From: a virus
DNA: 38,082 bases
IMG/VR virus record: IMGVR_UViG_3300027693_000002
Reading direction: 5' to 3' (one strand)
The translations under genes and the position numbers were made by a program. Shown one piece after another: positions 14,000-38,082 of this stretch (its first letter is position 1; every line of letters begins with the position of its first letter). The notes under the pieces are model-generated. The model searched no databases, had not been told where the DNA came from, and saw only the letters and a program-made list of their open reading frames with translations.

Positions 14000-14356
14000 A
14001 TGAGCAAAGTCGAACGAGAAGCTGTCATCCTGAACACGGTTCCTGGTTCGAAGTGGTATCAGTGCGTGAATAGCAAGTGGGTAGTGGGCTTGGTCGAGAG
14101 GGTAACCAAGACTACGATCTACCTCGAAGGGGGGACTCGCATCTCGAAGAGGAACTGTCGTGACCAAGATGGTTGGGCTTGGTATCCACCCACTCAGAAC
14201 ATCGTCAAGCAGTTCGAGGACTTTGAGGTCGCCAGGGTTGCTTACGAGGCGGCCGTAGAGAAGCTTCGAGAGGCAGCTCAGCGTGCTACGCCTGCTCAAC
14301 TTCTCAAGCTAGCCACTCAGCTAGAGAGCCTCATTGACCTGTCGGAGATTCACTGA
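14000..14356 (+). CDS. family B small protein (118 aa), with paralogues at 15380 and 16333
   Basis: Shared ...NTVPGSKWYQC...W...VTKTT...GG..ISK..CRD..G..W.PPTQ...; promoter motif upstream. Confidence 0.75.
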   Translation: MSKVEREAVILNTVPGSKWYQCVNSKWVVGLVERVTKTTIYLEGGTRISKRNCRDQDGWAWYPPTQNIVKQFEDFEVARVAYEAAVEKLREAAQRATPAQLLKLATQLESLIDLSEIH

Positions 14357-15343: not shown

Positions 15344-15379
15344 GTTATGGGTTCGCAGGGGGCAAGCGTAATAGAGAAC
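15344..15379 (+). promoter_or_regulatory. consensus leaderless promoter (weak -35, GTTATG)
   Basis: GCGTAATA at 15366-15373, gagaac, then ATG at 15380. Confidence 0.55.
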
Positions 15380-15751
15380 ATGAACGCAGTTGATCGCGAA
15401 GAGGCCATTCGAAATACGGTACCTGGTTCAAAGTGGTATCAGTGCATCCATGGTAAGTGGCATGCGGTTGAGGTCAAGAAGGTAACCAAGACTACGGTTG
15501 TGCTTCTGGGGGGCACTTGCATCTCGAAGGCAACCTGTCGTGATCATGCTGGGCGGATCTGGTTTCCACCCACTCAGGACCTAGTTCTGGAGGTCATGGC
15601 GAAGAAGGACGCGATGACCTCTTACCTGGCAGCTCTAGAGAAGCTTCGAGCTATTGCTCAGTGGACTACAGCTGACCAGCTCCGGCAACTAGTCACCCAG
15701 ATGGAGAGCCTCATTGACCTCGTCACCGTCAATAGGGGCATAGGCCGGTGA
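15380..15751 (+). CDS. family B small protein (123 aa). The start is placed at the internal ATG defined by the promoter geometry and the paralogue N-termini.
   Basis: MNAVDREEAIRNTVPGSKWYQC... aligns with the family B N-termini. The track ORF begins 39 nt upstream, inside the promoter. Confidence 0.7.
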   Translation: MNAVDREEAIRNTVPGSKWYQCIHGKWHAVEVKKVTKTTVVLLGGTCISKATCRDHAGRIWFPPTQDLVLEVMAKKDAMTSYLAALEKLRAIAQWTTADQLRQLVTQMESLIDLVTVNRGIGR

Positions 15752-17803: not shown

Positions 17804-18102
17804 CCCTGGGGGAGGGTTAATGCGCCGTAGGGGGGAATGCCTTGGTCCAGTTCCGGATTTTGAGTTTGACGCTGACCTGTAAGATAGGTTGCCGGTAAGG
17901 TTACGAGCAGTGCATCAAGACTCGAGGGTGGTGGGGAGCCAGGGTCACTCTCGTTTATGACCAGAACAATGGGGGTGGCCTGGATAGTTAGTAGATTGCT
18001 TACAGGTAGGTAAGCTCTTGGCTCATTCCTATAGTTACCAGCGTATTGAGTAACTACATGTAAGCTAGTCCCTTGTTCGAGCTTATAAGCTCGAGCCTCT
18101 TG

Positions 18103-18178
18103 ATTGCCTACACGTAGTTTTAGAGCATGTTCGTAGCAATAGTAATGAGCCAATCATAAAACTACGTGTAGTTACATA
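18103..18178. repeat. R1 inverted-repeat element, copy 2
   Basis: GCCTACACGTAGT...CGTAGCAATAGTAATGAG...CTACGTGTAGT. Confidence 0.6.
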
Positions 18179-18404
18179 CTTTCTGGTTGAGAGTCCGCTT
18201 TTTGGTACATACTACGACTCATGTCATCAGTTGAGGGGAAAGTCGCACACTTTTTGAGAGCCGTAAGGCTCGGTTTGGTGAAAGACGTTCCACCGGATGC
18301 TGTCACATGTGAGTTCCATACAAAACTCACATGTGACAGCATCCGGGCTGCCACGTGTGGGGATAGGATTCTCGTAGAAAGGCAGGAACGCCGTCGAAGT
18401 TTGG

Positions 18405-18439
18405 TTGAGTTTGGCAAGACTGGCACGTAATACTAGGGC
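18405..18439 (+). promoter_or_regulatory. consensus leaderless promoter (TTGAGT-N14-CACGTAATA-N7-ATG)
   Basis: TTGAGT at 18405-18410, then ATG at 18440. Confidence 0.6.
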
Positions 18440-18670
18440 ATGACCCTCAAACATACGGCTGACATGCTTGCCTCGCTCAACGAACTGACTGCCAAGGTGA
18501 CGGCATTCAAGTCGTTTGCTGAGCTAGCAGCTCGCATGCTTGATGGGTACGTTCCCACTCTACGTGGAGACGATGCGGACTCAAAGGCCCTCGCCCTAGG
18601 GATCACCAGGGCGGGATTCAAGGCTTGGAACCCGGCAACGGGACGGAATTGGGTCGACGAAACCGGTTGA
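18440..18670 (+). CDS. family C small protein (76 aa)
   Basis: Its C-terminal 45 aa are nearly identical to 18936..19169. Its stop codon lies inside the next -35 box (ACCGGTTGAGG). Confidence 0.7.
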   Translation: MTLKHTADMLASLNELTAKVTAFKSFAELAARMLDGYVPTLRGDDADSKALALGITRAGFKAWNPATGRNWVDETG

Positions 18671-18700
18671 GGTTCTCGAAGCTCGCGCGTAATAAGAGGC
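18667..18700 (+). promoter_or_regulatory. consensus leaderless promoter
   Basis: TTGAGG (18667-18672), 14-nt spacer, GCGTAATA (18687-18694), then ATG at 18701. Confidence 0.65.
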
Positions 18701-18919
18701 ATGCCCAAGACGAAAAAGCTAACCCCCACCCAGGTTAAAACTCTCCAAGAGATCATCAAGATTACGGGTGTGGGGTTTCCTTGGAGTTGTGTCCCGGAAT
18801 ACAAGCCGGCTCTTAAGCTGCTCGAGCTCGGGTACGTGTCGAAGACTAAAAGTTTAGGTGGGTCTCTAATCATCTTGGTTCCGACCGAGCTAGGTCGATC
18901 AGTGGCTTCGAGCTTGTAA
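18701..18919 (+). CDS. family D small protein (72 aa)
   Basis: Paralogue of 21236..21475, with the shared block WSC.PEYKPALKLLEL.YVSK...LVPTELGRSVAS. Confidence 0.7.
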   Translation: MPKTKKLTPTQVKTLQEIIKITGVGFPWSCVPEYKPALKLLELGYVSKTKSLGGSLIILVPTELGRSVASSL

Positions 18920-18935: not shown

Positions 18936-19169
18936 ATGAAAAGCGAAGTTCAAGTTGCTGCCCAGATCGACAAACTCAACCAGCTAACGGCTTCGGCCAC
19001 GGCCTTTAGGTCGTTCGCGGAGTTAGCTGCCAAGATGCTCGATGGGTACGTTCCCACCCTACGAGGGGACGATGCTGACTCGAAGGCGTTGGCTCTCGAG
19101 ATCACCAAGGCAGGATTCAAGGCTTGGAACCCGGCGACTGGGCGGAACTGGGTCGACGAAACCGGTTGA
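18936..19169 (+). CDS. family C small protein (77 aa), SD-led
   Basis: AGAGGGGGA lies about 10 nt upstream. Paralogue of 18440. Confidence 0.7.
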   Translation: MKSEVQVAAQIDKLNQLTASATAFRSFAELAAKMLDGYVPTLRGDDADSKALALEITKAGFKAWNPATGRNWVDETG

Positions 19170-19200
19170 GGTTCTTGGGGGTCGTGCGTAATAGGATGGC
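19166..19200 (+). promoter_or_regulatory. consensus leaderless promoter
   Basis: TTGAGG (19166-19171), 14-nt spacer, GCGTAATA (19186-19193), then ATG at 19201. The stop codon of the previous gene is inside the -35. Confidence 0.65.
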
Positions 19201-19641
19201 ATGGCACGATACCTCATCACCGTAGCGGCAGTTCTCCTAGTCGACCTGAGTGGATGTGCCCCTTTAGAGGACCACTTCCAGGTGACAGGGGACGCTACGG
19301 AGGAAGAGATTGCGATCATGCAGGAGGCCTCGGACGCTTGGTGTGAAGCGACGAGTGGTGCTTGGTGCGCCCAGATGAACCGGGAAGAGGGCGCCAACAA
19401 GATTCGCATCGTGCCGGTAGGGGTATTGCCGGGGAAGGATCACGCCATCTACACCCACCACAAGGGGTTGTATGAGTGGCACGAGATCCGGATTACGGAC
19501 CGTCGGGATAGAGACACGTGGGAGTTTGACTTGTATTACACAGTACTCCACGAGATGGGGCACGCCTACAACCTGCACCATCAGGATGGTACGGTGATGC
19601 AAGTTGGTTATGATCGTACACTGTTCGAAGAGAAGCCATGA
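19201..19641 (+). CDS. putative lipoprotein zinc metallopeptidase (metzincin-like HEMGHAYNLHH)
   Basis: Signal peptide plus lipobox (LVDLSGC). An HExxH motif with a third His is spaced as in metzincins (HExxHxxxxxH, with Asn in place of the usual Gly). Confidence 0.6.
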   Translation: MARYLITVAAVLLVDLSGCAPLEDHFQVTGDATEEEIAIMQEASDAWCEATSGAWCAQMNREEGANKIRIVPVGVLPGKDHAIYTHHKGLYEWHEIRITDRRDRDTWEFDLYYTVLHEMGHAYNLHHQDGTVMQVGYDRTLFEEKP

Positions 19642-19815
19642 AAGAAAAACTGATTCGTTGGTTGGTCGGGACCCCCACTCATGAGACGGGGAGTAAGCGT
19701 ATTAGGACCGTATGCGACGCCATCAAGTGGCGCTTAGGGGGACTCCCCTGGTTGGACGCGTCGGTACGGTACGATGGTTCAGTATCCCTCTACTATTACA
19801 GGTAATCTTTCCCAA

Positions 19816-19850
19816 TTGAGTTCAGGATAGGCTCAAGCGTAATAGACGTG
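19816..19850 (+). promoter_or_regulatory. consensus promoter followed by a 22-nt SD-containing leader
   Basis: TTGAGT at 19816-19821 and GCGTAATA at 19837-19844. There is no ATG at the canonical spot. AGGAGA sits 8 nt before the ATG at 19865. Confidence 0.55.
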
Positions 19851-19864
19851 CAGGAGAAGAAACC

Positions 19865-20563
19865 ATGATACAGTATGTACGTCCAGGGAAGAAACTAACA
19901 CTATACTGCCAGTGTTACAGTTACTTTGGGTCGGGGATTGGGATCGTCCGGTTGACGTTGACCGGCGGGGCCACACGGGGGCCTTCTGTGGAGTCCGGAG
20001 ACAACGGGTTCTGCCGCTGGAAGTCCTGCGAGGTGACCCTGCAGGCAGGGTCTACTGCGCGCGCGGAAGAGTCGTACTATCCCGGTGGGGACAGCGACAT
20101 CACTTACGTCGCGGACCTGGAGAAGTGGCGGGAGAAGAGGCGGGCCCATTTGGCTCGACTGTTTCAAGATCGGAAGATCGAGAGGGCGTACGCCGAGCTT
20201 CATTCGGCTCGTAAGCTGGAGATTGAGACTCGCTTACGAGCTGCGATCCAGGCTGCCATCGAGCTGGAGGGGCAGGCCCGGGCGCGAGCTTCAGGGCGTA
20301 GTGGCGGTCGAGCCCGAAGGGGAGCCGTGGTTCTTCGAGCCCAAGCGGCAGACCAACGTCGACTTGCGGCGGCCCTAGCATCAACCTACTACGTGGAAGT
20401 GCTCGAGTGCTGTAACCGAGCGTGGTCGGTCGACCAAGGGCTAGCGTCCCGAGAGGTTCGATGGGAAGCTCGGAACAGTTTCCGACAAAGCCGAGGCGGG
20501 CTAGCATCCGCCAAAATGCCAGCGGGTTGTGAAGTGGCACTCAAGTGGGCGTTAGCTGAGTAA
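19865..20563 (+). CDS. hypothetical Arg/Ala-rich protein (232 aa)
   Basis: ORF with an SD. Confidence 0.5.
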   Translation: MIQYVRPGKKLTLYCQCYSYFGSGIGIVRLTLTGGATRGPSVESGDNGFCRWKSCEVTLQAGSTARAEESYYPGGDSDITYVADLEKWREKRRAHLARLFQDRKIERAYAELHSARKLEIETRLRAAIQAAIELEGQARARASGRSGGRARRGAVVLRAQAADQRRLAAALASTYYVEVLECCNRAWSVDQGLASREVRWEARNSFRQSRGGLASAKMPAGCEVALKWALAE

Positions 20564-20851
20564 GCCACACACTTTCGAGTTCAAAATTTGGACATTGACT
20601 TAGAACTGGGCTATTCGGGGTGGGTATGGACGAATTCAGTCACAGAATCCGGCAAATAGCCCATCTCGTGCTTCACAAGCAGGACACATCATCTTTTGAC
20701 CCGCTCGAGGTAGAGGCGGCCAAGATCTACCTCAAAGACCAGGGGCCCGAGGAACCCGAGACTGAACGGCCACCAAGCTCTCCAAGTTCTCCAAAGCGCT
20801 CTTAGAGGAACTTGGTCTCGAAGGGGGGGTGGGATTTCCTCGAAAGAGAGG

Positions 20852-20885
20852 TTGAGCCCGGGCTCCCTCGCGCGTAATAGAGAGC
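20852..20885 (+). promoter_or_regulatory. consensus leaderless promoter
   Basis: TTGAGC, 14-nt spacer, GCGTAATA (20872-20879), then ATG at 20886. Confidence 0.6.
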
Positions 20886-21062
20886 ATGTCTACCGAAACC
20901 CGCCTAGAAGTTATGGCTCATGCTGCCCGTTGGGCAAACAACATGCTCAATGAGGTTCAGGCGAATCATGGGGTCCTGTTAGGACCCCATGCGAGACAAG
21001 CTCTGAAAACGGCAGTCCTGGCCCTAGGGGACTTTCTACTACACGTGAGCGTCAACGAATGA
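20886..21062 (+). CDS. hypothetical 58-aa protein (below the 60-aa cutoff of the ORF track)
   Basis: An ATG at the canonical distance from the promoter; translates to MSTETRLEVMAHAARW...VNE. Confidence 0.5.
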   Translation: MSTETRLEVMAHAARWANNMLNEVQANHGVLLGPHARQALKTAVLALGDFLLHVSVNE

Positions 21063-21205
21063 AGCTCAGCGAGAAACAACAAGATCTGTTCGACGAGATC
21101 AAGGATTTGACCTCCAATGGGGGTCGATTATCGATCGACCCCCATGAGGTTCCAACGGCGAAGGTCCTCGTGCTCTCCTTCAAAGAACCGCCCAGCAAAG
21201 GTTGA
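21059..21205 (+). CDS. hypothetical 48-aa protein, coupled by an ATGA overlap
   Basis: Its start overlaps the upstream stop (gaATGAag). Its stop lies within the next -35 box (GGTTGATC). Confidence 0.4.
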   Translation: MKLSEKQQDLFDEIKDLTSNGGRLSIDPHEVPTAKVLVLSFKEPPSKG

Positions 21206-21235
21206 TCTCTTTAGAGCCCAGGCGTAATAGAGTGC
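21202..21235 (+). promoter_or_regulatory. consensus leaderless promoter (TTGATC-N14-GCGTAATA)
   Basis: GCGTAATA at 21222-21229, then ATG at 21236. Confidence 0.6.
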
Positions 21236-21475
21236 ATGAGCAAGAAGCTATCCCCAGCCCAAGCCCGGGTCCTTCAGGAAGTCATCAAGGTTACTGACGA
21301 TGGATATCGAGCTTGGAGTTGTTTCCCGGAATACAAGCCTGCTCTCAAGCTCCTCGAGCTTGAGTATGTGTCCAAAAGTGAGACCTTGGGTAGCTACCGA
21401 ATCACTTTGGTCCCAACCGAGCTAGGTAGATCAGTGGCTTCTAAGTTAGCCACATCTAAATCCTTGACCACTTGA
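21236..21475 (+). CDS. family D small protein (79 aa)
   Basis: Paralogue of 18701. Its last codons run into the 380-nt repeat. Confidence 0.7.
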   Translation: MSKKLSPAQARVLQEVIKVTDDGYRAWSCFPEYKPALKLLELEYVSKSETLGSYRITLVPTELGRSVASKLATSKSLTT

Positions 21476-21897
21476 CCGTCCTGGGGTATCCTCCGGGGGT
21501 CGTAAGTTCTTCTTGCCCAGCGCCCGAATAGGCTTAGCGCCTTCCTTCTGGGGTCAGCCAGGTAAGAAACCTGAGGCCGCCTACTTCGGTGGGTCGTAAC
21601 AGGTGAACCGATAGACACCAGATGTAGATCCTATAGATGTAGATTCTATCCGATGTAGATACCATGCCTCAGCTAGGCCGAACCGGCCCTGCTAGGTCAA
21701 AGTAAGCTGACGATCTCTGTTCCCTGGAATGAGCCAATCCTTCCTCTTAGTAGGTAAACACAGGCTACGAGGGACGCCCGAGTCCGAAGCTAAACCGGCC
21801 CGCAGGAACGAAGTAGGACAAATAGCTCTCATTCTCAGCCTGAATCCCTTTGCTTTAGAGCAATTGTCTGGAAACGGGCTAAAGGTGTATTTGGGGG
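21461..21897. repeat. R2 large intergenic repeat, copy A (~437 nt)
   Basis: It aligns with 27946-28325. The blocks are near-identical (about 130 nt identical: GATACCATGCCTCAGCTAGGCCGAACCGGCCC...GAGTCCGA). Copy A carries an extra insert with 3 tandem copies of a GATGTAGAT-containing ~15-mer (21620-21665). No ORF is conserved between the two copies. Confidence 0.75.
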
Positions 21898-21898
21898 G

Positions 21899-21933
21899 TT
21901 GAGTTCGGGGAAAGCTCGTGCGTAGTAGAGATC
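21899..21933 (+). promoter_or_regulatory. consensus leaderless promoter (GCGTAGTA variant)
   Basis: TTGAGT (21899-21904), 15-nt spacer, GCGTAGTA (21920-21927), then ATG at 21934. It is preceded by GGAAACGGGCTAAAGGTGTATTTGGGGGG. Confidence 0.6.
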
Positions 21934-22569
21934 ATGGCATTGACAATCGGTTACGAGGTTCATTGGGCGGGGGCTAACAGGGCGGATGAGTTGTCGGCGC
22001 TCCGCCATGGTGCAAAGAGGCATGCTACCTATGAAGCCGCTCTGGTAGAGTCCAGAGAGATCACCCCTCCTGAGCCCGATCTGGTGACCATAGTGGTGGA
22101 AGTTCGAACTAAGGTTCAAACCAACTGCTCACAACCCCTACGTGGAGACCCCATGCCGAAGCTCGAAGAACGAATCGAGAAGAAACGAATTCACCTCCGT
22201 ACGCTGGACGAACAGATCGGGGCCCTAATGGCCCTGCGTGCTGATGTAGGAGAGGAGCTTGCGGACCTCTTACTCGAGTCGCGGGTTGGCATTCCGGAGG
22301 TGGTCGAGGGCGGGCAGCCCTTCAGGAGCGACCAGAAGGTGATCTTGGAGAAGCGGGCCCCCGACGGCAAAGCTCGACTTCACCCAAACCAGCCTCCGGT
22401 GGGTGCCATGACCTTTGACGCCCTCTACGCTCTCTACTTCTGGGAGTCGACTCACGACAAGCTCGATGCACTCTTCTTTCGGGAGGGGGCGATCGAAGAG
22501 GAAACTTGGAAGGACCTCCGTGAGTGGCTCGACTCAAAAGGTTGGGTCGTACGGGTTGAGACCTGGTGA
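21934..22569 (+). CDS. hypothetical protein (211 aa)
   Basis: ORF at the promoter. Confidence 0.6.
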   Translation: MALTIGYEVHWAGANRADELSALRHGAKRHATYEAALVESREITPPEPDLVTIVVEVRTKVQTNCSQPLRGDPMPKLEERIEKKRIHLRTLDEQIGALMALRADVGEELADLLLESRVGIPEVVEGGQPFRSDQKVILEKRAPDGKARLHPNQPPVGAMTFDALYALYFWESTHDKLDALFFREGAIEEETWKDLREWLDSKGWVVRVETW

Positions 22570-22575
22570 ATCTGG

Positions 22576-22610
22576 TTGAGTTCGGGGTAGGCTCATGCGT
22601 AATAGGGAGC
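22576..22610 (+). promoter_or_regulatory. consensus leaderless promoter
   Basis: TTGAGT (22576-22581), GCGTAATA (22597-22604), gggagc, then ATG at 22611. Confidence 0.6.
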
Positions 22611-22817
22611 ATGGGCGACTTGACCACAATCTGGATGGTTCGAACGATGGGTTTCGACTTCATTGGGCTGGCTCCAAAGACGGATGAACATCCGGCAATG
22701 CAGTGCCGATTCGTCGAACAGACGAACCAGATCATCTTTGAGGAGTTTCAGGATGGCAACTGGAGTGTGATCCCCCCATGTCTTCGTGGGGATTGGCAGC
22801 TCTTCAAGGTCCGGTAG
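22611..22817 (+). CDS. hypothetical 68-aa protein. The start is reassigned to the promoter-defined ATG.
   Basis: The track ORF 22566..22817 starts inside the promoter, but the canonical geometry points to 22611. Confidence 0.5.
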   Translation: MGDLTTIWMVRTMGFDFIGLAPKTDEHPAMQCRFVEQTNQIIFEEFQDGNWSVIPPCLRGDWQLFKVR

Positions 22818-23567: not shown

Positions 23568-23951
23568 ATGCCTACATTCAATTTAGAGGCACTGGAAAGT
23601 CTACCAGCTGGTACTATCCCAGATGGCTGGTACCCTATTAGGCGGGTTGATCTCGACGGCGTGCAACTGGTCGAGACCGATACAGGAGCTTACCGGCTTA
23701 CGGCCGGGGAACACGGGAAGAACCCCCATTTTGGGCGTGTGCAGAATATCCCCGGGCGTGGGCCCGCGTGGATGCGTTTGATTTTCCGCGAATGTGCCTA
23801 TGGCGCGGAGTCGGATTCTGCCCAGCAAGCGATTGCTGAGGCCATAGAGGCCGAGAACGCTGAGAGTCAAGTCCGACCCCCTTCTTCGATTGAGCGCGCA
23901 AACGAACTTCAGGGGGTAAGCGCCAAAGCGGGCCCCTCCAAAACCGGTTGA
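23568..23951 (+). CDS. hypothetical protein (127 aa)
   Basis: ORF that follows a module-type leader. It ends ...AAAACCGGTTGA, inside the next -35 box. Confidence 0.5.
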   Translation: MPTFNLEALESLPAGTIPDGWYPIRRVDLDGVQLVETDTGAYRLTAGEHGKNPHFGRVQNIPGRGPAWMRLIFRECAYGAESDSAQQAIAEAIEAENAESQVRPPSSIERANELQGVSAKAGPSKTG

Positions 23952-23981
23952 GCTTCGTGTTGCCCGCGCGTAATACTGGGC
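23948..23981 (+). promoter_or_regulatory. consensus leaderless promoter
   Basis: TTGAGC (23948-23953), 14-nt spacer, GCGTAATA (23968-23975), then ATG at 23982. Confidence 0.6.
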
Positions 23982-24245
23982 ATGGCACATAGAACTCACC
24001 GCAAGTTGGCAAAGCGACTGATCAGCCCTTGTTGGATGATCCGGACCGGGATTGCTTGCGAGCAGATCTCCCCCGTGTATCCGACCCTTGAGAAGGGATT
24101 CGAGGAGGTGGTCTCCGCCGTTTGCGGGTTTGACCCACTGTCAAGTCCGGACACCATCGAGCTCGTCCGCCACAGTCGGCGGAATCCAAAGCTTCTCGTC
24201 CGGTACTACTGTACGGATGAGGGGAAGATCGTCCAGGTTCAGTAG
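23982..24245 (+). CDS. hypothetical protein (87 aa)
   Basis: ORF at the promoter. Confidence 0.55.
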   Translation: MAHRTHRKLAKRLISPCWMIRTGIACEQISPVYPTLEKGFEEVVSAVCGFDPLSSPDTIELVRHSRRNPKLLVRYYCTDEGKIVQVQ

Positions 24246-24258
24246 GCGCGCTTTCTGG

Positions 24259-24293
24259 TTAATTTCGTCACGGGTTTCCGCGTAATAATGGGC
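24259..24293 (+). promoter_or_regulatory. consensus leaderless promoter (TTAATT -35)
   Basis: GCGTAATA at 24280-24287. The canonical ATG is at 24294; an extra ATG at 24288 directly abuts the box. Confidence 0.55.
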
Positions 24294-24677
24294 ATGTCGA
24301 ACAACGTTCATCTCCTGGATTTTATTCACACTGGGACTCAACAGCAGTTGGTTGCATTCGCCTGCAAGGTAGCTAAGCGAGCCAGCCCCGGGCCTGCTGG
24401 ACTTCATGCGATCGAGATTGCGGAGCGATGGCTCCGGGGTGAAGCTATTTCGAAGGAAGAACTCATCGTCGCGGGAGATGCGGCCTCTGATGCAGACGAT
24501 GACCTGGCAGGCTACGCTACCATCGCGGCGGCCTTTCCAGGAGATGCCGTCGAAGCGGCTTACATAACGGCGATCCACGCTTTGGATGATCTTGACGACC
24601 ACGCTCAGGAGGCTGAGGTGGCTCAACAAGTCCAGGACTTTCTTGATATCTTGGGTGGAAACCCAGCAAAGGAGTGA
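24288..24677 (+). CDS. hypothetical acidic protein (129 aa from 24288, or 127 aa from 24294)
   Basis: First gene of an operon whose downstream genes are SD-led. Confidence 0.6.
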   Translation: MGMSNNVHLLDFIHTGTQQQLVAFACKVAKRASPGPAGLHAIEIAERWLRGEAISKEELIVAGDAASDADDDLAGYATIAAAFPGDAVEAAYITAIHALDDLDDHAQEAEVAQQVQDFLDILGGNPAKE

Positions 24678-25946: not shown

Positions 25947-25963
25947 AACTGACTCAAAGAGAG

Positions 25964-25998
25964 TTGAGTTCTTGGACCCTCGCGCGTAATAGAGGGGT
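25964..25998 (+). promoter_or_regulatory. consensus leaderless promoter
   Basis: TTGAGT (25964-25969), 14-nt spacer, GCGTAATA (25984-25991), then ATG at 25999. Confidence 0.65.
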
Positions 25999-26541
25999 AT
26001 GCAAGACCAAGACGATATCAAGGAAGAGCTCAAGCACATTGTCTGGGGTCTCGCCATCGAAGGGGCCACGGCTCATCTCCACGAGACCAGCGTTACCTTC
26101 AAGGCCGAGGGGGTGGATTGCTCCATCTATACGGAGGTGCTTGCGATCCCGAACCAAGTGACCAAGGACGCCGAGGGGAATGAATACGTTCCCTTGGAGG
26201 TCAGAGTCACCCTAGTTGAGCCAATTTTTGCTTTAGACACGCCCAAGGAAATCATCGCCCGACTCCAATTCGGGCTCAAGGTTGCCCAGCTCGCGCAGAG
26301 CATTGTTGATCACTTCGCAGGCCGAGACCTTCGGTGCCTCCTCTGTAGCGCAGGTGAGAGGGCCGAGAAGGATGTTTGGGCCTTCTGCACACCCCACATT
26401 AAGGGAATGCGGGTAGACAAGACCAAGCCGTTGAATAAGCCCCCGCAATTCTTAGATGGGGAGTACCACTACGAGGTTCTTGGTAAGACCTACTGCGTCA
26501 AGATCGTGCTTGATGCAGTCTTCATCACGCGCACCAAATAG
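25999..26541 (+). CDS. family F protein (180 aa)
   Basis: Its C-terminal domain is duplicated from the previous gene, and the promoter is duplicated with it (a 40-nt identical upstream block). Confidence 0.65.
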   Translation: MQDQDDIKEELKHIVWGLAIEGATAHLHETSVTFKAEGVDCSIYTEVLAIPNQVTKDAEGNEYVPLEVRVTLVEPIFALDTPKEIIARLQFGLKVAQLAQSIVDHFAGRDLRCLLCSAGERAEKDVWAFCTPHIKGMRVDKTKPLNKPPQFLDGEYHYEVLGKTYCVKIVLDAVFITRTK

Positions 26542-26557
26542 AACGGACCCAAAAAAG

Positions 26558-26591
26558 TTGAGTTCTTGGACCCTCGCGCGTAATAGAGGGC
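26558..26591 (+). promoter_or_regulatory. consensus leaderless promoter
   Basis: Identical to the 25964 promoter over about 35 nt (TTGAGTTCTTGGACCCTCGCGCGTAATAGAGGGC). Confidence 0.65.
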
Positions 26592-26795
26592 ATGAAGACG
26601 GAACTCATGGTTGGCTCAGAACTCGTAAAACGCCGCCGTAGCCTCTCGTACCCTTCTGGAACTGTCAAGGTTCCTGGAACCTTGGTCACGATTGTCGGAT
26701 CGACTCCCAAGTTTTGGGAGTTGAGCGATGACACTCTCGTGTCAAAAACCACTCTCGAAGCAAAAGGTTCGCTATTCACTTACAGTGTGAGCTGA
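26592..26795 (+). CDS. hypothetical protein (67 aa)
   Basis: ORF at the promoter. Confidence 0.5.
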   Translation: MKTELMVGSELVKRRRSLSYPSGTVKVPGTLVTIVGSTPKFWELSDDTLVSKTTLEAKGSLFTYSVS

Positions 26796-27149: not shown

Positions 27150-27422
27150 ATGGACCTAAAAAGGTACGAGAGCAAGGTGACGGCCCTTCTAAACCTACTT
27201 AGGGAGCACGAAGTCCTGTCCTCTCAGCTACCAATTGGGTTCTCAGAAGCTTGCTTCGTTGCTGAGGAGTTCGGCCTGGCCTACGCCAGAAAAGACCTCA
27301 CCTTAACGTCAAGGGACAAGGCTATCTGGGTATGGAGGATCACCGACGCTGGTCGCCGTTGGCTCAAAGAGCGAGAGCATCCTGAAGTCCCTCCGACAGA
27401 AGTTCTCCCCACGAAGGATTGA
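27150..27422 (+). CDS. family E small protein (90 aa)
   Basis: Paralogue of 28412..28666 (MDL.KYESK..ALL..LR.H..LS..LP.G..EAC..AEE.GLAYARKD..L.S..KAIW.WRIT..G..WLK.RE.PEVPPT). A GTATTAGG box precedes the ATG. Confidence 0.6.
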   Translation: MDLKRYESKVTALLNLLREHEVLSSQLPIGFSEACFVAEEFGLAYARKDLTLTSRDKAIWVWRITDAGRRWLKEREHPEVPPTEVLPTKD

Positions 27423-27452
27423 GTTTCTGAGCCCTTATGCGTAATACTGGGC
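27419..27452 (+). promoter_or_regulatory. consensus leaderless promoter
   Basis: TTGAGT (27419-27424) overlaps the stop of the previous gene; GCGTAATA (27439-27446); then ATG at 27453. Confidence 0.6.
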
Positions 27453-27671
27453 ATGCCGAATGAAGACCATCAGGTGGTGCTTGGAATCCAAGTAAAGAAG
27501 AACGCAAAGGGGATGCGAGTGGGAGCCTCGAAAGAGGTTTTCCACATGACGATTGGGCTGAGCCAGAAGGCCATGATCCTTCCGGGTCGTCACTTGGTGG
27601 TGCTCGGGACCCGACGTTACCGGGTAGAGGTCGACCAGAACAAGAACCTCAAGATTACTCGTACGGTTTGA
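27453..27671 (+). CDS. hypothetical basic protein (72 aa)
   Basis: A frameshifted remnant of its 5' end, with its own promoter, recurs at 31651. Confidence 0.6.
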   Translation: MPNEDHQVVLGIQVKKNAKGMRVGASKEVFHMTIGLSQKAMILPGRHLVVLGTRRYRVEVDQNKNLKITRTV

Positions 27672-27724: not shown

Positions 27725-27900
27725 TATCCATGTAAGCAAATACGTGGTTCGTTACTATTGATACGAACAGTGCACTCGCTTACATGTAGTTTTTGCTCAC
27801 GTTCGTTACTATTGATACGAAAGCTAAGGTTGCCTACACGTAAGTATCAAGCACGTTCGAATCTATAGTAATGAACACGATTTTGGTCTACGTGTAGTAT
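27725..27900. repeat. R1 inverted-repeat element, copy 3, plus two extra direct copies of the 19-21-mer GTTCGTTACTATTGATACGAA
   Basis: 19-21-mers at 27748-27768 and 27802-27822 in one orientation, and CGAATCTATAGTAATGAAC at 27858-27875 inverted. Termini are GCCTACACGTAAGT / CTACGTGTAGT. CATGTAAGC...GCTTACATG flanks the first 19-21-mer. Confidence 0.65.
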
Positions 27901-27945: not shown

Positions 27946-28325
27946 CTCTTGACCACTTGACCGCCCTGAGGTATCCTCCGGGGGTCGTAAGTTCATCTTG
28001 CCCAGCACCCGAACAGGCCCAGAGCCTTCCTTCTGGGGTTAGCGAGGCAGAGTGAACCTCCTACGACACTCATCCTAGATGAAGATACCATGCCTCAGCT
28101 AGGCCGAACCGGCCCTGCTAGGTCAAAGTAAGCTGACGATCTCTGTTCCCTGGAATGAGCCAATCCTTCCTCTTAGTAGGTAAACACAGGCTACGAGGGA
28201 CGCCCGAGTCCGAGTGCTGAAACGACCTAAACGGAACCGAAGTAGGACAAGTAGCTCAAATCTCAGCCTGAATCCCTTTGCTTTCGGAGCAATTGATTGG
28301 AAACGGGCTAAAAGTGCATTTACTT
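27946..28325. repeat. R2 large intergenic repeat, copy B (~380 nt)
   Basis: See copy A. It is preceded by two tandem copies of ACCACTTGACCGCCCTGA(A)GG (27905-27965). Confidence 0.75.
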
Positions 28326-28411
28326 GATTAACTACATCTCCTAGGACTAGCTGGACACCCTCACCCACCCCAGTTAGAATACATCCCAGAACGGGGTGAG
28401 CCGTATTCACG

Positions 28412-28666
28412 ATGGACCTAACCAAGTACGAAAGTAAGATAGCGGCCCTCCTAATCGTACTCAGAGGTCACGACATCCTGTCCCCCAACCTACCTAGCGG
28501 GTCCGCAGAGGCTTGTTCCATCGCCGAAGAGCTCGGCCTGGCCTACGCCAGAAAAGACGTCCACCTGTCATCCAGCATGAAAGCTATCTGGATTTGGAGG
28601 ATCACCGCCTCCGGTTGCCAATGGCTCAAAGATCGGGAGCGTCCTGAAGTACCCCCGACAGATTGA
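28412..28666 (+). CDS. family E small protein (84 aa)
   Basis: Paralogue of 27150. Confidence 0.6.
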   Translation: MDLTKYESKIAALLIVLRGHDILSPNLPSGSAEACSIAEELGLAYARKDVHLSSSMKAIWIWRITASGCQWLKDRERPEVPPTD

Positions 28667-28702
28667 GTTTGGAAACGGGCTAAAGGTGTATTTGGGGGTA
28701 CG

Positions 28703-28900
28703 ATGTCACCGATATCTCGTCAGGAGAAGAGCCTATTGGAGAGGGAGAGTCCTGGGGATCCTGCTGGGGATCTTCGGGAGAGGGACCGGCTCAGGAAGCA
28801 GCATGAGCGGGCACAGGATCCGGACAACATGAGGCTAATCCAAGCGTTACGTGAGTTTCTAGGGCTACAACCGCTACCTGGGATCCCAGAAAGAAAGTGA
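28703..28900 (+). CDS. hypothetical charged protein (65 aa)
   Basis: It is preceded by TTGAGT plus the GGAAACGGGCTAAAGGTGTATTTGGGGG element, but has no GCGTAATA box. Confidence 0.4.
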   Translation: MSPISRQEKSLLERESPGDPAGDLRERDRLRKQHERAQDPDNMRLIQALREFLGLQPLPGIPERK

Positions 28901-28909
28901 AGAACCTGG

Positions 28910-28943
28910 TTGAGGGTCCACCTCCTCGCGCGTAATAATAGGC
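28910..28943 (+). promoter_or_regulatory. consensus promoter with no ORF at the canonical position (ACG replaces ATG); it feeds a long hairpin
   Basis: TTGAGG (28910-28915), 14-nt spacer, GCGTAATA (28930-28937), ataggc, then ACG. Confidence 0.55.
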
Positions 28944-28944
28944 A

Positions 28945-29039
28945 CGAAGGTCAGAAGCTAAACCCCTCCTTGACTAGCTGTAGTGGGGTCCTTGACTAGC
29001 TGTAGTGGTTAGTGGGAGGGGTTTAGTTCCTGACCTTCG
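28945..29039 (+). ncRNA. 95-nt hairpin leader / ncRNA candidate. The ~25-bp stem has a 4-nt internal mismatch. The 45-nt loop holds two tandem copies of CCTTGACTAGCTGTAGTGG.
   Basis: The 5' arm CGAAGGTCAGAAGCTAAACCCCTCC (28945-28969) pairs with GGAGGGGTTTAGTTCCTGACCTTCG (29015-29039). The predicted transcription start of the upstream promoter is at about 28944. Confidence 0.45.
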
Positions 29040-29050
29040 TAGTCGGAACC

Positions 29051-29802: not shown

Positions 29803-29814
29803 ACCGCTCCCCGG

Positions 29815-29849
29815 TTGAGTTTCACCCGCCCTCAGGCGTAATAAGGTTC
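29815..29849 (+). promoter_or_regulatory. consensus leaderless promoter
   Basis: TTGAGT (29815-29820), 15-nt spacer, GCGTAATA (29836-29843), then ATG at 29850. Confidence 0.6.
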
Positions 29850-30284
29850 ATGTCACTTCAACACTTGTTAGCCGAGGCCCTCTGCGCAACCTTCACCAGC
29901 ATGTGTGGGAAGTGGCAAGCCAAGAAGCCTTCCCCCAAGGCCTTCGTGGTGAGCTTCAAGACCTCCATTAACTCCGACAAGGAAGAGGGTCACCGTTACG
30001 TCGACCTAGCCCTCTACGCTTCCCACAACTACGTCAACGTCTACTCACGAGAGCGCTGGAATACAATCCCACTCGAGGATATGGAGTGGGACGAGGAAGC
30101 CCAAGAGATGATGCCCTCGAAGGGCAAGGGCTATACCAAGGGTGAGACCCCTTGGAAGCTCCTAGTCTCCCATGACACGGGCTGGTCGGAGGCGGTGGAG
30201 GACTTCCTCCAGGCGAACGCCTCCAAGGTGAACGCCTTCGAGGGCAACTTTTACAAGCTCGTGGACGCTACCGAGTTCGAGTGA
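29850..30284 (+). CDS. hypothetical protein (144 aa)
   Basis: ORF at the promoter. Confidence 0.6.
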   Translation: MSLQHLLAEALCATFTSMCGKWQAKKPSPKAFVVSFKTSINSDKEEGHRYVDLALYASHNYVNVYSRERWNTIPLEDMEWDEEAQEMMPSKGKGYTKGETPWKLLVSHDTGWSEAVEDFLQANASKVNAFEGNFYKLVDATEFE

Positions 30285-31155: not shown

Positions 31156-31616
31156 CTTTGATGTTCACTTCCTGCTTCAACGAATCATAACTCGTAGTCC
31201 GAAGTTTCCCTCGTTCCGCCGTTAGAGGGTTCTCCACAGGCTTTCAGAGATCATAGATCTCCACGTTTCCCCTAAACTATGGGTACGTTAAACCTACGTA
31301 AAGTTGGTTCTTTTCTTGATTCCTCAAGTCTTTTACCGCAACAAGGACAACGACATTGCGCCTTCGGCGCAAGTCTTTCGTGTTGCGAACCACTTAGACT
31401 TGCTTTTCAAGGATCATCTCAGGTCTTCCCTTGGTTTTCGGGTTTAGTTGCCTGAGTCCACGAACCTTGATTCAGTCCTGAGAAAATGTCAAGCTAATCT
31501 GGTTTGATCAACTTTGATCAACTTTTCTTTCAGCTGCTCCAACCCCCAATACGGTCCGCCCTCTTGGAGGGACCGCTCCATTGGAGCAGGAAAGTGACCC
31601 GGCACTAAGAAAGACG

Positions 31617-31650
31617 TTGAGTCCATCCAAGCTCATGCGTAATACTGGCC
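31617..31650 (+). promoter_or_regulatory. consensus promoter driving a decayed gene copy
   Basis: TTGAGT (31617-31622), 14-nt spacer, GCGTAATA (31637-31644), then ATG at 31651. Confidence 0.55.
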
Positions 31651-31662
31651 ATGACCGAATGA
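31651..31662 (+). pseudogene. remnant of the 27453 gene's 5' end (ATGaCCGAATGAgg versus ATGCCGAATGAAG), frameshifted by a 1-nt insertion so that a stop follows after 3 codons
   Basis: Direct comparison of the two promoter-plus-start regions. Confidence 0.45.
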
Positions 31663-31744
31663 GGCTCCTGTAACGTAAGAGGTATATTCCTCAGAGGGAG
31701 CGTACCCGACCAGCGGACGATGTCTCAGATGCAATGTCGGGTGA

Positions 31745-31769
31745 TAGGGTTCGATTCCCTAGGGGAGTC
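31745..31769 (+). other. tRNA-like T-arm plus 3' acceptor fragment (TAGGG-TTCGATT-CCCTA-GGGGAGT-C)
   Basis: A canonical T-loop (TTCGATT) with a 5-bp stem. A possible 5' acceptor partner, ATTCCTC, lies at 31686-31692. I could not fold a convincing D arm or anticodon arm, so this is not called a tRNA. Confidence 0.2.
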
Positions 31770-31833
31770 TCAAATGGTCTACTGGTCAGGACTTCTAACC
31801 TAAGTACCACAACAACAAACCTGACTAGTGCAC

Positions 31834-33459: not shown

Positions 33460-33982
33460 TCAACGAACGGCACGGTGTCCTTTTGGGAGCAACCTACCGC
33501 AAGATGAGCATTCGGATCCGGCACTGAACTTGACTCCACACTCGCAGTATCCGGCTTCATTCAAAACATCGGAAGCTAGGATCACTAGCTTGTTCAGATC
33601 TCCCAGGACACCGGAGGCCGTGGCATAAGCAGCCAGATCACTGGCATCTCTTGTGTAACCTTTTGCGAGGTTCACCCGTAGGTGCTCCCGCATGATGTCA
33701 GTTACGTCCATTTCAAGCTCCACAGGCAGCGTAGTAGCCGTCAGCAACTACGCGGTAGTTGTTACCCTCGCGGGTGATGGTGGCTTTCGAACCTGTGACG
33801 AACTCAACCGCGTCAGCCAAGTCCTGCTTGGAGGCATTGAGCTCAGTCAGGTCCATAGGGTTCACCATCGTGTTGATGGCAGTCTTCCAGTTATCCTTTG
33901 GGGCACACAAGTCGAAAAGCGGCAGGTATTTCTTCTGCTCTGGGGTTTGGCAGTAGGGGATCTCGCGGGACTGGGTCGTCAT
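33460..33982 (-). CDS. two overlapping minus-strand ORFs (33713..33982 and 33460..33747). They may be one gene with a frameshift or two overlapping genes.
   Basis: Both translations look protein-like. There is a 35-nt overlap in different frames. Confidence 0.35.
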
Positions 33983-34101
33983 GCAGACTATTTACGCACG
34001 AGCCTCCCGAGTTCTCAACAAGATTCTACGAGGGCTCGAGGGGGTTGGGTGTGCTCCTTACGGGGGGCTGAAAGGTTCGGCTTTTTGGTGTACTCACAGT
34101 C

Positions 34102-36169: not shown

Positions 36170-36194
36170 GCAGCAAGTGGCCCGTCAACAACCA

Positions 36195-36707
36195 CTAGTG
36201 AAGTGGATCGATGCTTAGATGTCGCTCCACTTCGTCGCTCACGCAAGTTCTTTCTTCGGGGCCGCTCCTCTCGAGACAGGGAGCGACACCTCGAGCAACG
36301 GTCCAACTGCCATCCTCCGCCTCTTGCAGTTCACCTCGCTTGGTGAGGTAGTTACGAGTGGCGTTTCTCTTTTGGGCAGCCGGATCATCGCGCCCATTTT
36401 CGAGCTCCCGAGTTGCCTCGGCTATTGTCAGTCGGGGGTTTCGTTCATAGAGGCGTTTCAACCGTGCCGCCTTGGTGCCCGAGGTGTCATGTTTCGGAAC
36501 TACAGGGACTTCGACCCAGTCTTCGGTATAGTGCTCCACTAGCCGGTCAGATAGCTCTGTTATCTGACTCTGCAACTCCCGGAACTGTTGAGTGCGGGTC
36601 TGCTGTTCGAGCTTGAACCGCTCCTCAGCTTGCTTGAGTTCTTGAGCTTTCTCGACCATCTTGGCCGAGAGGATCTGAATCTCGTCTGCTGGGGAAAGTC
36701 TGACCAC
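36195..36707 (-). CDS. hypothetical coiled-coil protein (170 aa)
   Basis: Heptad-like EQ-rich N-terminal half. Confidence 0.5.
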   Translation of the reverse strand: MVRLSPADEIQILSAKMVEKAQELKQAEERFKLEQQTRTQQFRELQSQITELSDRLVEHYTEDWVEVPVVPKHDTSGTKAARLKRLYERNPRLTIAEATRELENGRDDPAAQKRNATRNYLTKRGELQEAEDGSWTVARGVAPCLERSGPEERTCVSDEVERHLSIDPLH

Positions 36708-36922
36708 GTTGGTATCGCGTATCTAGCACATGCAAAGAGATCGACAACACGAGGCTGTCGGATTTGACTTGGAAGCTAGCTTAGTGTTGACCTAACCAGC
36801 GGGTATCTTTAACTATTGTTCCTTGTGTAGAAGGGATGGCAGCATGGTGCTATGTGCCCGTTGTGCTGGAGATCGCCTAGGTGGTGTCCATGATCGTAGG
36901 GACCGATGAAGCCCTAAAGATG

Positions 36923-37201
36923 CTAATGCGCGTCTTCTTGGTCAGGCCCTCTTCCATCCTCTTCCAGTAATCTTTGATCGAACTCTTTCAGTATTCGCTC
37001 GTACCTCGTTTGCTGAGCTGGTGAGATTACTTGCAGTACTTCCTCACTGGTTAGTTCGATGCCTCGCTCTCTTGCAAGTCGCAGGATCTCCTCCAGGGGT
37101 TTATCCTTGTGGTAGATGATGTGGACAATCTTCTGCATACTACCATTCAGAGGTTCGCTCTTCACGAGCCCAATTGTCAAGAGACTAGGCCAACACTGCA
37201 C
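36923..37201 (-). CDS. small protein immediately downstream of the sigma factor gene (92 aa, or ~71 aa from the internal ATG at ~37138)
   Basis: Same strand as the sigma gene. An anti-sigma or regulator role is only a guess. Confidence 0.35.
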   Translation of the reverse strand: MQCWPSLLTIGLVKSEPLNGSMQKIVHIIYHKDKPLEEILRLARERGIELTSEEVLQVISPAQQTRYERILKEFDQRLLEEDGRGPDQEDAH

Positions 37202-37824
37202 AAGTCTGTTCCAAGCGCCCTCTTGATCTTTGTGATGACTCGAGTTTTGATTTGGCTGACTCGGGGTTCAGTGGTACCCCAAGCAAGGGCGATGTCTAGG
37301 AGGCGGTCGCCGAGGGCGATGGCTTCGAGGACTTGGCGTTCTCGGTCACGGAGGGGGACGGAGTCGACCTGTTGGAAGACTTCTCGGAAGTAAACGACGT
37401 CATCTGGGGAAGAGCGGTGGGAAGCGAGTAGGACCTCGTCGAGGTCATTGAACCGGGGTTTGTTTTTGGCCTTGAGCATTCTACGTGGTAGGGCGGCTTC
37501 ACCTCGAATCTCGTCCCAGATTTGGCCTCGGATACGGAGACGGGCGTATAAGGGGAAGGTGGCCTCGTCGCCAATGAAGCGCGTGCAGGCGTTCCACAGG
37601 CCGATAGATCCGAAGTGCTCTAAGGTTTTGAGGTCATAGATGAGGGACATTTTCCGGAGGGCGAACTTGGCTTCCAGGGTGACCAGGTGCAGGTGGTTCT
37701 TGAAGCGGTCCTGGATAGGATCCTTTTTGATGGGGAGTGGGTCACCGATGGGGTTAGCTATCTGGCGCAGGCTAATCCCTCTTGCGGCTTCTTCGATCTT
37801 TTTGGAGTCAGCGAAGTTAGCCAC
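37177..37824 (-). CDS. sigma-70-family RNA polymerase sigma factor (215 aa; regions 2 and 4 only)
   Basis: The C-terminal stretch RDRERQVLEAIALGDRLLDIALAWGTTEPRVSQIKTRVITKIKRAL is a typical region-4 HTH. The central part resembles region 2. The start is GTG. Confidence 0.75.
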   Translation of the reverse strand: MANFADSKKIEEAARGISLRQIANPIGDPLPIKKDPIQDRFKNHLHLVTLEAKFALRKMSLIYDLKTLEHFGSIGLWNACTRFIGDEATFPLYARLRIRGQIWDEIRGEAALPRRMLKAKNKPRFNDLDEVLLASHRSSPDDVVYFREVFQQVDSVPLRDRERQVLEAIALGDRLLDIALAWGTTEPRVSQIKTRVITKIKRALGTDLCSVGLVS

Positions 37825-37878
37825 ACTTAGTTACCCTGGGACAGAAGGAATACCGATTTAGAGAGAGTTCAAGGTCAC

Positions 37879-38079
37879 CTAACCAGTCGAGACATGCACT
37901 GTGGTAGACGGGTCTGCAACTGGGCGATCCAATAACTCACTAGGATCCATGCTAAAGAACTTAGCGACAAGAACTGCCTTCTGATAGATTTCCGGCGGGG
38001 CGTCCCCCTCGATTTTTCGGTTACGGTACCACCTGCCCACGTCATCAAGCGAAGACATAACCTTACGAACGTTTTCCAC
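37879..38079 (-). CDS. hypothetical protein (66 aa or longer; its start is near the window edge)
   Basis: ORF upstream of the sigma gene on the same strand. Confidence 0.3.
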   Translation of the reverse strand: MENVRKVMSSLDDVGRWYRNRKIEGDAPPEIYQKAVLVAKFFSMDPSELLDRPVADPSTTVHVSTG

Positions 38080-38082
38080 TAC

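Follow-up and report, generated by a model that had tools for sequence, protein, structure and literature searches.

The window analysed here is a 38,082-nucleotide (nt) stretch of viral DNA, IMG/VR record IMGVR_UViG_3300027693_000002. Its right end carries a sigma-70-family gene on the minus strand (37177..37824; GTG start; 215 amino acids, aa), whose product has FliA/WhiG-like sigma2 and sigma4 domains and lacks sigma3. The window also contains a family of repeated promoter elements built around the box GCGTAATA, most of which sit directly on the start codons of small open reading frames (ORFs). A preliminary description of this DNA had suggested that the encoded sigma factor may be the reader of this promoter family.

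The sigma gene and its product

The product of ORF 37177..37824 is a genuine, very divergent member of the sigma-70 family, closest to FliA and WhiG. The GTG start is confirmed by the N-terminal sequence (M/V)ANFAD, which is conserved across all relatives. Classification with hidden Markov models (HMMs), which the preliminary description had called for, places the protein best in the FliA/WhiG (group 3) lineage, with every curated cut-off missed. The NCBIfam model FliA_WhiG (TIGR02479) matches at E=4e-16 and 59.3 bits, short of its cut-off of 189.6, and all FliA/WhiG equivalog models in NCBIfam leave the protein far under their curated thresholds. The superfamily model for extracytoplasmic function (ECF) sigmas (TIGR02937) gives 38.6 bits against a cut-off of 42.9, and Pfam Sigma70_r4 gives 17.9 bits (E=0.002), below 24.1; the Pfam region 2 model yields weak matches only, in relatives of the window sigma. 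PHROG 351, 'RNA polymerase sigma factor', matches at 2e-8. When a profile of the family is compared with all PDB sequences, FliA is recovered at 6e-13, WhiG at 1.5e-9 to 4e-7 and RpoD only at 1e-4. In that search, profile positions 89-173 align to FliA sigma2 (E 6e-13) and the C-terminal part to FliA region 4, where an RVSQ motif is conserved in the family.

The AlphaFold model, built on a 15-sequence alignment, contains two confident helical domains at residues 36-109 (predicted local distance difference test, pLDDT, 78-95) and 140-204. Between these, residues 111-134 are modelled as disordered linker and no sigma3 domain is present; the distance from sigma2 to sigma4 is ~38 profile positions in the family vs ~92 residues in FliA. 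Foldseek returned only sigma factors for this protein (SigH, WhiG, SigD, FliA, SigB). The HMM, PDB profile, Foldseek and AlphaFold results thus bear out the earlier account of a 215-aa sigma-70 protein at the right end with regions 2 and 4 only, the last point because the model shows two domains and a disordered linker without sigma3. Binding to core RNA polymerase and promoter-specific initiation are predicted activities of the protein.

Most family members carry an N-terminal extension resembling HTH_23/HTH_38 helix-turn-helix (HTH) domains (EEAARLRSQGxSLRQISKLTGLHRETI...). The sigmas of the window and of the related loci L001 and L048 have a ~50-aa internal deletion within this extension (residues ~15-25 region). 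The same three proteins differ at the C-terminus: the relatives end in KADL, whereas the window protein ends in TDLCSVGLVS, with 7 extra codons. The 'short' database members P0006, P0009 and P0010 are probably start-call artefacts. In L009 (10001-10493), on a 98.5-kb IMG/VR contig, the ortholog is split over two frames near 10230-10258, which could reflect a frameshift, an assembly error or a pseudogene.

A promoter family placed on start codons

The box GCGTAATA occurs in 17 exact copies, all on the plus strand between 13386 and 31637, where 0.37 would be expected; none of 100 shuffles of the sequence attains 17 copies. Four near-copies with one or two mismatches, at 3462 (+), 18425 (+), 21920 (+) and 33997 (-), keep the -35 element, its spacing and the distance to the ATG of an ORF, which brings the total in the window to 21 promoter units. 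The 'more than 20 dedicated promoters' of the preliminary description is therefore a fair count. The box is, however, only half of a bipartite element, GTTGAG-N15/16-GCGTAATA-N6/7-ATG, and its position at the start codon had escaped that reading. In 18 of the 21 units an ATG lies 6-7 nt past the box and opens an ORF of 58-211 aa. In promoter coordinates, the -35 element occupies -36..-31 and the 8-mer box -15..-8. A literature search with the string GCGTAATA yields T7-promoter primers only.

The plus-strand unit at 13365..13402, GTTGAG-N15-GCGTAATA-N6-ATG, opens ORF 13400..13954 (184 aa), and the next, at 13963..14002, does so with N16 and N7 spacers (ORF 14000..14356, 118 aa). Others on this strand are 18666..18703 (ORF 18701..18919, 72 aa), 19165..19203 (ORF 19201..19641, 146 aa), 20851..20888 (ORF 20886..21062, 58 aa), 22575..22613 (ORF 22611..22817, 68 aa), 23947..23984 (ORF 23982..24245, 87 aa), 25963..26001 (ORF 25999..26541, 180 aa), 26557..26594 (ORF 26592..26795, 67 aa) and 29814..29852 (ORF 29850..30284, 144 aa). 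Among the plus-strand units, the -35 hexamer is weak in 15344..15382 (GTTATG; ORF 15380..15751, 123 aa) and 24258..24296 (GTTAAT; ORF 24294..24677, 127 aa), and reads GTTGAT in 21201..21238 (ORF 21236..21475, 79 aa) and ATTGAG in 27418..27455 (ORF 27453..27671, 72 aa). Variant boxes are found at 3441..3478 (+; GCGTAGTA, N6 to the ATG of ORF 3476..3835, 119 aa), 18404..18442 (+; ACGTAATA, ORF 18440..18670, 76 aa), 21898..21936 (+; GCGTAGTA, ORF 21934..22569, 211 aa) and 33980..34019 (GCGTAAAT, ORF 33713..33982, 89 aa), the last being the only minus-strand member. The three remaining units, all on the plus strand, depart from this layout. Unit 19837 (19815..19851) has a leader, in which a 20-nt spacer with an AGGAG Shine-Dalgarno sequence separates the box from the ATG of ORF 19865..20563 (232 aa). 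Unit 28930 (28909..29040) is without an ORF, and unit 31637 (31616..31785) has an ORF of only three codons; both are followed by predicted structured RNAs.

Pooled statistics were taken over 80 non-redundant sites outside the lineage of a 512-kb contig. Of these, 49 have a 15-nt spacer between -35 element and box and 28 a 16-nt one; the ATG follows the box after 6 nt in 69 sites and after 7 nt in 8. Conservation extends beyond the two core elements, to (A/T)TC after GTTGAG and CTSGY before the box. G occupies -15 in 75/80 sites, C occupies -14 in 80/80 and T occupies -7 in 3/80; the -15 and -14 columns played no part in site selection. The TAATA of the motif supplies T-12 and A-11. Divergent promoter pairs with overlapping -35 elements occur. 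A rule for sigma70 promoters, which demands A as the second and T as the sixth base of the -10 hexamer, accepts a single site among the 17 of the window. Canonical promoters of the form TTGACn-N16-18-TAnnnT number 7 in the window vs 2.1 expected, so that the element carries a normal promoter class beside the special one. A hairpin or cruciform around the box, of the N4-like or RNA-operator kind, was rejected, as the best stems of the real sites average 2.85 bp vs 2.73 for cross-site pairings (permutation p = 0.23).

The ORFs led by the motif (88 distinct, median 86 aa) are nearly all ORFans. Among the 20 largest, 10 from the window and 10 from related loci, 19 show no significant Pfam family, and the 10 from the window have no PHROG match either. 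The one exception is a DDE transposase; a gene for a transposase with SWIM and DDE_Tnp_1 domains is motif-led in two lineages, at L001 17701..18939 (-) and L022 980..2209 (-). The array at 13.4-31.6 kb (+) consists largely of duplicated small genes with their promoters (repeat families D2-D8), among them a family with the sequence MxxVEREAxIxNTVPGSKWYQC, whose members lie at 14000 and 15380 and which is represented in L002 by a relative at 19886.

Predicted structured RNAs and leaderless transcripts

The ORF-less unit 28930 is followed by a ~97-nt near-perfect predicted hairpin at 28944..29040 (+), with a minimum free energy of -59.7 kcal/mol (z = -7.9). Its first nucleotide, the predicted +1 at 28944, falls where the ATG normally sits, and the RNA holds a tandem ccttgactagctgtagtgg repeat. 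Unit 31637 leads into a tRNA-shaped predicted fold at 31651..31785 (+; z = -3.9) with the acceptor-like stem GGCUCCU/GGGAGUC and a T-loop-like element, GGTTCGATTCC. Rfam contains no known RNA family that matches in the window, including these two regions, and ARAGORN calls no tRNA in the window, the tRNA-shaped fold among the sequences not called. Since the structured RNAs of the ORF-less copies begin 6-7 nt after the box, transcription would start at this distance, and most motif units would then yield leaderless mRNAs with +1 on the A of the ATG. The window also holds a gene for a Thg1-like enzyme of tRNA 5' ends, described below.

Distribution of the sigma family and the promoter

Among 5.8 billion proteins searched by word index there are 15 relatives of the window sigma, and 1.84 billion representatives, searched exhaustively with a profile, contain only 6 clusters at E<=1e-30. 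The next profile matches are proteins of ~170-200 aa that match in one stretch (sigma2-sigma4), followed by ordinary FliA-sized proteins that match in two. Neither the GenBank phages (50,697 records) nor the PLSDB plasmids contain a real homolog of the sigma, the best being marginal matches (E~1e-4 in the phages), and neither collection holds DNA near-identical to the window. The family occurs only on uncultured viral contigs: relatives lie on contigs of 95, 226, 443 and 512 kb, several of them listed as viral in IMG/VR, where viral contigs with the sigma span 66-512 kb. These contigs encode small ORFans, GIY-YIG and T5orf172 homing endonucleases, methyltransferases and an anti-repressor, as well as RNA ligase, R2K, transglycosylase and tail-type matches, and an Ig-like domain such as occurs in virion proteins is present in a 654-aa protein of the window. 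In the sampled clade DNA, which amounts to about a tenth of these genomes, no capsid or terminase gene was seen, and none of 53 large ORFs encodes an RNA polymerase subunit. The 'mobile element' of the preliminary description can be refined: the window is most likely part of a very large uncultured phage.

Every lineage that bears the sigma also carries the motif (the window, L001/L048, L003/L007, L006, L009, L049 and L050, with a variant in L008), at sigma identities of 46-100% among these lineages. Three additional IMG/VR fragments hold the element as well. Only 5 IMG/VR contigs have more than one strict copy, and two of these encode the sigma; a third contig with the sigma, that of 512 kb, has one strict copy and ~12 variant copies, its lineage using the variant promoter GGTGAGATC...(C/T)GTA(A/G)TActgagcATG. 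Across 185,579 bacterial and archaeal genomes, a tightened motif pattern matches 5 times, which is the chance level, and the motif is not a general bacterial promoter. One of the five matches (L060) is a mis-binned phage fragment. Two convincing copies lie in one metagenome-assembled genome (MAG) labelled 'delta proteobacterium', MFD01476.bin.3.99, at L061 4892-4929 (-) and L062 1333-1370 (-). Both are in bacterial-looking islands on 571- and 820-kb contigs, with FGE-sulfatase-like secreted proteins, an integrase and HicB. These copies may be a weak lead to the host, or may mark host or mobile-element genes wired to the phage sigma.

A second sigma paralog of ~180 aa, 29-34% identical, is encoded in L010 (10001-10558), L011 and L058. 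The L010 paralog shares the 512-kb contig with a sigma ortholog. Motif copies near the paralog loci number 0 in L011, 0 in L058 and 1 in L010, and these neighbourhoods, being without or almost without the GCGTAATA motif, suggest a multi-sigma programme.

Proposed recognition of the promoter

The strongest argument on the reader of the motif comes from structure, namely from a 2026 study of the sigma28 open complex. Sigma28 reads (-15)GCCGATAA(-8), in which R97 touches the GC at -15/-14, an extended -10 element; the flipped A-11 stacks on Y76, and R80 (in place of sigma70 W434) and D87 contact -12/-13 (PMC12784957). Region 1.2 reads -7 in group-1 sigmas, and sigma28 does not read this position because group-3 sigmas are without that region (PMC12784957). 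In the placement of both their -35 element and their 8-mer, the window promoters share the geometry of sigma28 promoters (PMC12784957), so that the spacing resemblance proposed in the preliminary description holds. So does its proposal that the -10 box deviates from the housekeeping consensus in the manner of group-3/4 sigma promoters: the near-fixed G-15 and C-14, the retained A-11 and the almost absent T-7 are, by this analogy, a sigma28-type and not a primary-sigma-type reading. The deviations match what would be predicted for a sigma without region 1.2. On the protein side, HMMER aligns Y93, R97, R99, G100, D104, E105, R107, P113 and R114 of the window sigma with FliA Y76, R80, R82, G83, D87, E88, R90, P96 and R97 (the FliA contact residues Y76, R80, D87 and R97 are in P. 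aeruginosa numbering). All but P113 are invariant in the 15 sequences of the family, in which overall identity falls to 46%; P113 is kept in most members and replaced by S, H or T in P0004, P0010 and P0014.

Together with the co-occurrence across lineages, these features make it moderately probable that the window sigma reads the GCGTAATA promoter, although a test for covariation between sigma and promoter did not discriminate. A dedicated repeated promoter class, distinct from the host consensus, is present on the sigma-bearing genomes, and its sequence features suggest that it would depend on the phage sigma. In the scheme that we propose, it is inferred which sigma reads the promoter, where exactly +1 lies, when the genes are expressed and that host core polymerase is used. 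The sigma gene would be expressed from its own, distinct conserved upstream element. The protein would then bind host core RNA polymerase and direct it to the near-invariant promoter GTTGAG(A/T)TC-N12/13-GCGTAATA. By analogy with sigma28, sigma4 would read the -35 element at -36..-31 and the conserved Arg at the start of region 3.0 would read G-15/C-14, while A-11 would be flipped onto the conserved Tyr and -7 would go unread owing to the absence of region 1.2. With initiation on the A of the ATG, 6-7 nt past the box, the products would be a leaderless regulon and at least two structured RNAs. The window would hold about 21 units of such a regulon, and a whole genome probably tens to more than 100.

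Several observations weigh against recognition by this sigma. The association of sigma and motif is seen only at clade level, so that any clade-specific factor would show it equally. The 512-kb lineage uses a variant promoter in which the GC at -15/-14 is lost or relaxed, yet R114 is retained in its sigma, P0013, and no change in the sigma4.2 recognition helix is specific to that lineage; only I98V stands out. In the window sigma itself, most of the N-terminal HTH is missing and the C-terminus is altered. These genomes encode at least one further sigma paralog (L010, on the 512-kb contig), and the failure to find polymerase subunits applies to about 10% of the big genomes. The promoter is near-invariant while the sigmas are 46-68% identical, which a conserved host factor would explain too. 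TTGAG(A/T)-N17-TAATAn shares 4/6 bases with the -35 consensus and keeps T-12 and A-11, and the genes behind the motif are small ORFans, a class typical of the early regions of many phages and transcribed there with the host sigma. These last features, with the missing covariation in the 512-kb lineage, would suit strong early promoters for the host primary sigma holoenzyme, the phage sigma serving another class such as late or virion genes. We consider this rather unlikely. T-7, which region 1.2 reads in group-1 sigmas (PMC12784957), is present in so few of the pooled sites, and G-15 and C-14 stand in place of the TG of an extended -10; the sigma70 rule fails at all but one of the window sites, separate canonical TAnnnT promoters exist in the same DNA, and strict copies are at chance level in the bacterial and archaeal genomes.

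An assignment to some other phage factor is also improbable, whether this be a paralogous sigma of the L010/L011/L058 type, a phage RNA polymerase encoded outside the sampled DNA or a MotA-like activator bound to GTTGAGATC with a modified host holoenzyme at the -10. The presence of paralog and ortholog on one contig gives the idea substance, as do the small inspected share of the large genomes and a conservation that reaches past the hexamers into the CTSGY of the spacer and the ATC next to GTTGAG, which resembles phage-specific systems. Yet the paralog loci are nearly free of the motif, whereas the ortholog always lies among motif promoters; the 53 large clade ORFs include no polymerase subunit; and the DNA features fit the conserved residues of the window sigma. 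The fixed distance to the ATG, and box flanks that often look complementary (e.g. CCCTC...GAGGG), could instead mark a signal acting at the RNA level on start codons, such as a processing site, a translational operator or a hairpin. This is very improbable given the bipartite layout with its 15/16-nt spacer and the divergent pairs that share overlapping -35 elements. Moreover, flank complementarity is no better than in cross-site controls (p = 0.23), and the structured RNAs begin at the predicted +1, do not contain the box and have no Rfam match.

Comparison with known sigma factors and phage systems

FliA/sigma28 (PDB 6PMI, 9WSM; TIGR02479) is the best relative of the window sigma by sequence, profile and fold. 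The family segment YARlRIRGQIWDEIRgesklPRR aligns with FliA YAgIRIRGAMLDEvRkgdwaPRS across region 2.3/2.4-3.0, and the promoters share the sigma28 arrangement of a -35 element at -36..-30, an 8-mer at -15..-8, GC at -15/-14, A-11 and no requirement at -7. The differences are equally clear. The window sigma reaches 59 bits where the FliA/WhiG cut-off is 190, is without sigma3, and belongs to a family in which most members add the HTH_23-like N-terminal domain. Its motif is GTTGAG-N15/16-GCGTAATA and not TAAA-N15-GCCGATAA, and thus differs at -13/-12 and in the -35 hexamer. The gene probably belongs to a phage and lies among phage ORFans, with no flagellar context and no FlgM-like partner of the FlgM/RsiG type. 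ECF (group 4) sigmas resemble it in their two-domain sigma2-linker-sigma4 architecture of about 200 aa, as modelled by AlphaFold. In contrast to them, the window sigma has its sequence affinity with FliA/WhiG, stays below the ECF model cut-off, retains the region 3.0 start 'PRR' and has no conserved co-transcribed anti-sigma. ECF promoters have AAC/CGT-type boxes, which are absent from this motif.

Phage sigmas that redirect host polymerase include T4 gp55 (with gp33), SPO1 gp28 and gp33/34, and phiEco32 gp36. The concept proposed here is similar, in that a phage in whose sampled DNA no polymerase was seen would recruit the host core to a dedicated conserved promoter class; it differs in that the promoter is fused to the start codon, which would make the regulon leaderless. 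Jumbo phages of 'group 2', which lack an RNA polymerase, encode minimal and RpoD-like sigmas (PMC7824862), and sigma70 genes have been noted in huge phages (PMC7162821). The window sigma is neither minimal, in the manner of gp55, nor RpoD-like. A start of transcription that coincides with the AUG, as predicted here, links the system to known leaderless phage messages. Examples are lambda cI transcribed from PRM and the middle and late genes of Thermus phage phiYS40. Here, by contrast, one fixed promoter recurs at ~80 or more sites with a box-to-ATG distance of 6-7 nt, in genomes of up to about 0.5 Mb. The window sigma is best described as a member of a new FliA-derived, sigma3-less family of phage sigmas tied to a predicted leaderless promoter regulon.

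Genes and control elements flanking the sigma gene

The sigma gene sits among motif-driven genes yet is never itself behind a GCGTAATA motif. Just upstream of its start lies a conserved block, GGTATTCCTTCTGTCCCAGGGTAACTA (37828..37854, -), which is not a GCGTAATA promoter. The block, with the consensus TA(T/A)TCCT(T/C)CTGTCnnnGGGTA, is found upstream of the sigma ORF in 5 lineages, once per locus, at L003 ~9960-9990, L006 ~9808-9838, L049 ~590-620 and L050 ~1856-1886 in the relatives; its distance from the start codon varies from 3 to 13 nt. From its conservation, the block at 37828..37854 is a candidate promoter or operator specific to the sigma gene. A second repeated promoter class was ruled out because of the single occurrence per locus. 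The absence of the motif from the sigma gene and its private conserved block indicate separate control, as expected for a gene that switches on its neighbours.

Upstream of the sigma gene, a co-directional small ORF (37879..38079, -) is cut by the window edge; it is 75 aa long in L048/L001, and forms an operon with the sigma in this lineage only. Downstream, a 92-aa ORF (36923..37201, -) overlaps the 3' tail of the sigma gene. The preliminary description had listed this as a small downstream gene and suggested that it could regulate the sigma. The ORF exists, but its GTG start falls inside the extra C-terminal tail of the window sigma, and a start at ATG 37138 is more likely. The suggested role as an anti-sigma or other regulator did not hold up: the ORF occurs next to the sigma only in the near-identical L001/L048, is absent beside it in L049, L003, L006, L008 and L009, and has no family match in Pfam, NCBIfam or PHROG. 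Nor is any other downstream partner of the sigma, such as a co-transcribed anti-sigma, conserved across the lineages. A 170-aa ORF without family match (36195..36707, -) is the last gene of a block shared with L001 at 98% identity. This ~1.9-kb sigma block (window 36174..38082 vs L001 9743..11651, 98.4% identity) is the sole part shared between the two, the DNA that flanks it in the window being unrelated or at most 77% identical. The restriction of the shared DNA to the sigma block points to strong mosaicism or a recent exchange of the sigma module.

Other features of the window

A Thg1-like gene of the tRNA-His guanylyltransferase family lies at 5203..5949 (-; Pfam Thg1 1e-26, Thg1C 4e-15) and is preceded by a canonical TTGACT-N16-TAGGAT promoter at 6012..5985. 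At 12640..12835, the 11-mer TTGTATATCAC occurs in six copies, four direct and two inverted, within a ~760-bp non-coding gap that separates a leftward gene block from the rightward promoter array; the arrangement recalls iterons or an array of operators. Three copies of an 83-nt unit (13214..13296, 18090..18172 and 27816..27898) have the inverted ends CTACACGTA ... TACGTGTAG, and two of these copies are upstream of runs of motif promoters. A duplicated non-coding module at 21463..21930 and 27948..28731 is made up of repeats D9, D6 (99% identity) and D12, begins with a sigma70-like TTGACC-N17-TATCCT site and may encode an RNA.

Implications

Phage sigmas that capture host RNA polymerase are classic, but few types are known. 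The present family is a previously undescribed, FliA-derived one without sigma3, restricted to uncultured, probably giant, phages, and its putative regulon can be recognised in sequence with unusual ease, given a promoter of about 20 nt that hardly varies. It offers a testable pairing of residues and bases, R114 with G-15/C-14 and the lack of region 1.2 with the lack of a -7 requirement, and would be a natural case in which an entire regulon is made up of leaderless mRNAs. A broader view can be put forward tentatively, with more doubt than belief: a clade of ~0.4-0.5-Mb phages may run an orthogonal programme in which a private FliA-derived sigma and a promoter fused to the start codon would drive tens to hundreds of genes and a few structured RNAs, with leaderless, Shine-Dalgarno-independent translation, the N-terminal HTH and the upstream block acting as a dedicated switch. 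If this is true, such a phage could shut down canonical host transcription and Shine-Dalgarno-dependent translation together while its own regulon is still expressed. If confirmed, the system would provide a compact orthogonal sigma/promoter pair and a handle on temporal gene classes in megaphage genomes, in which >90% of genes are without annotation.

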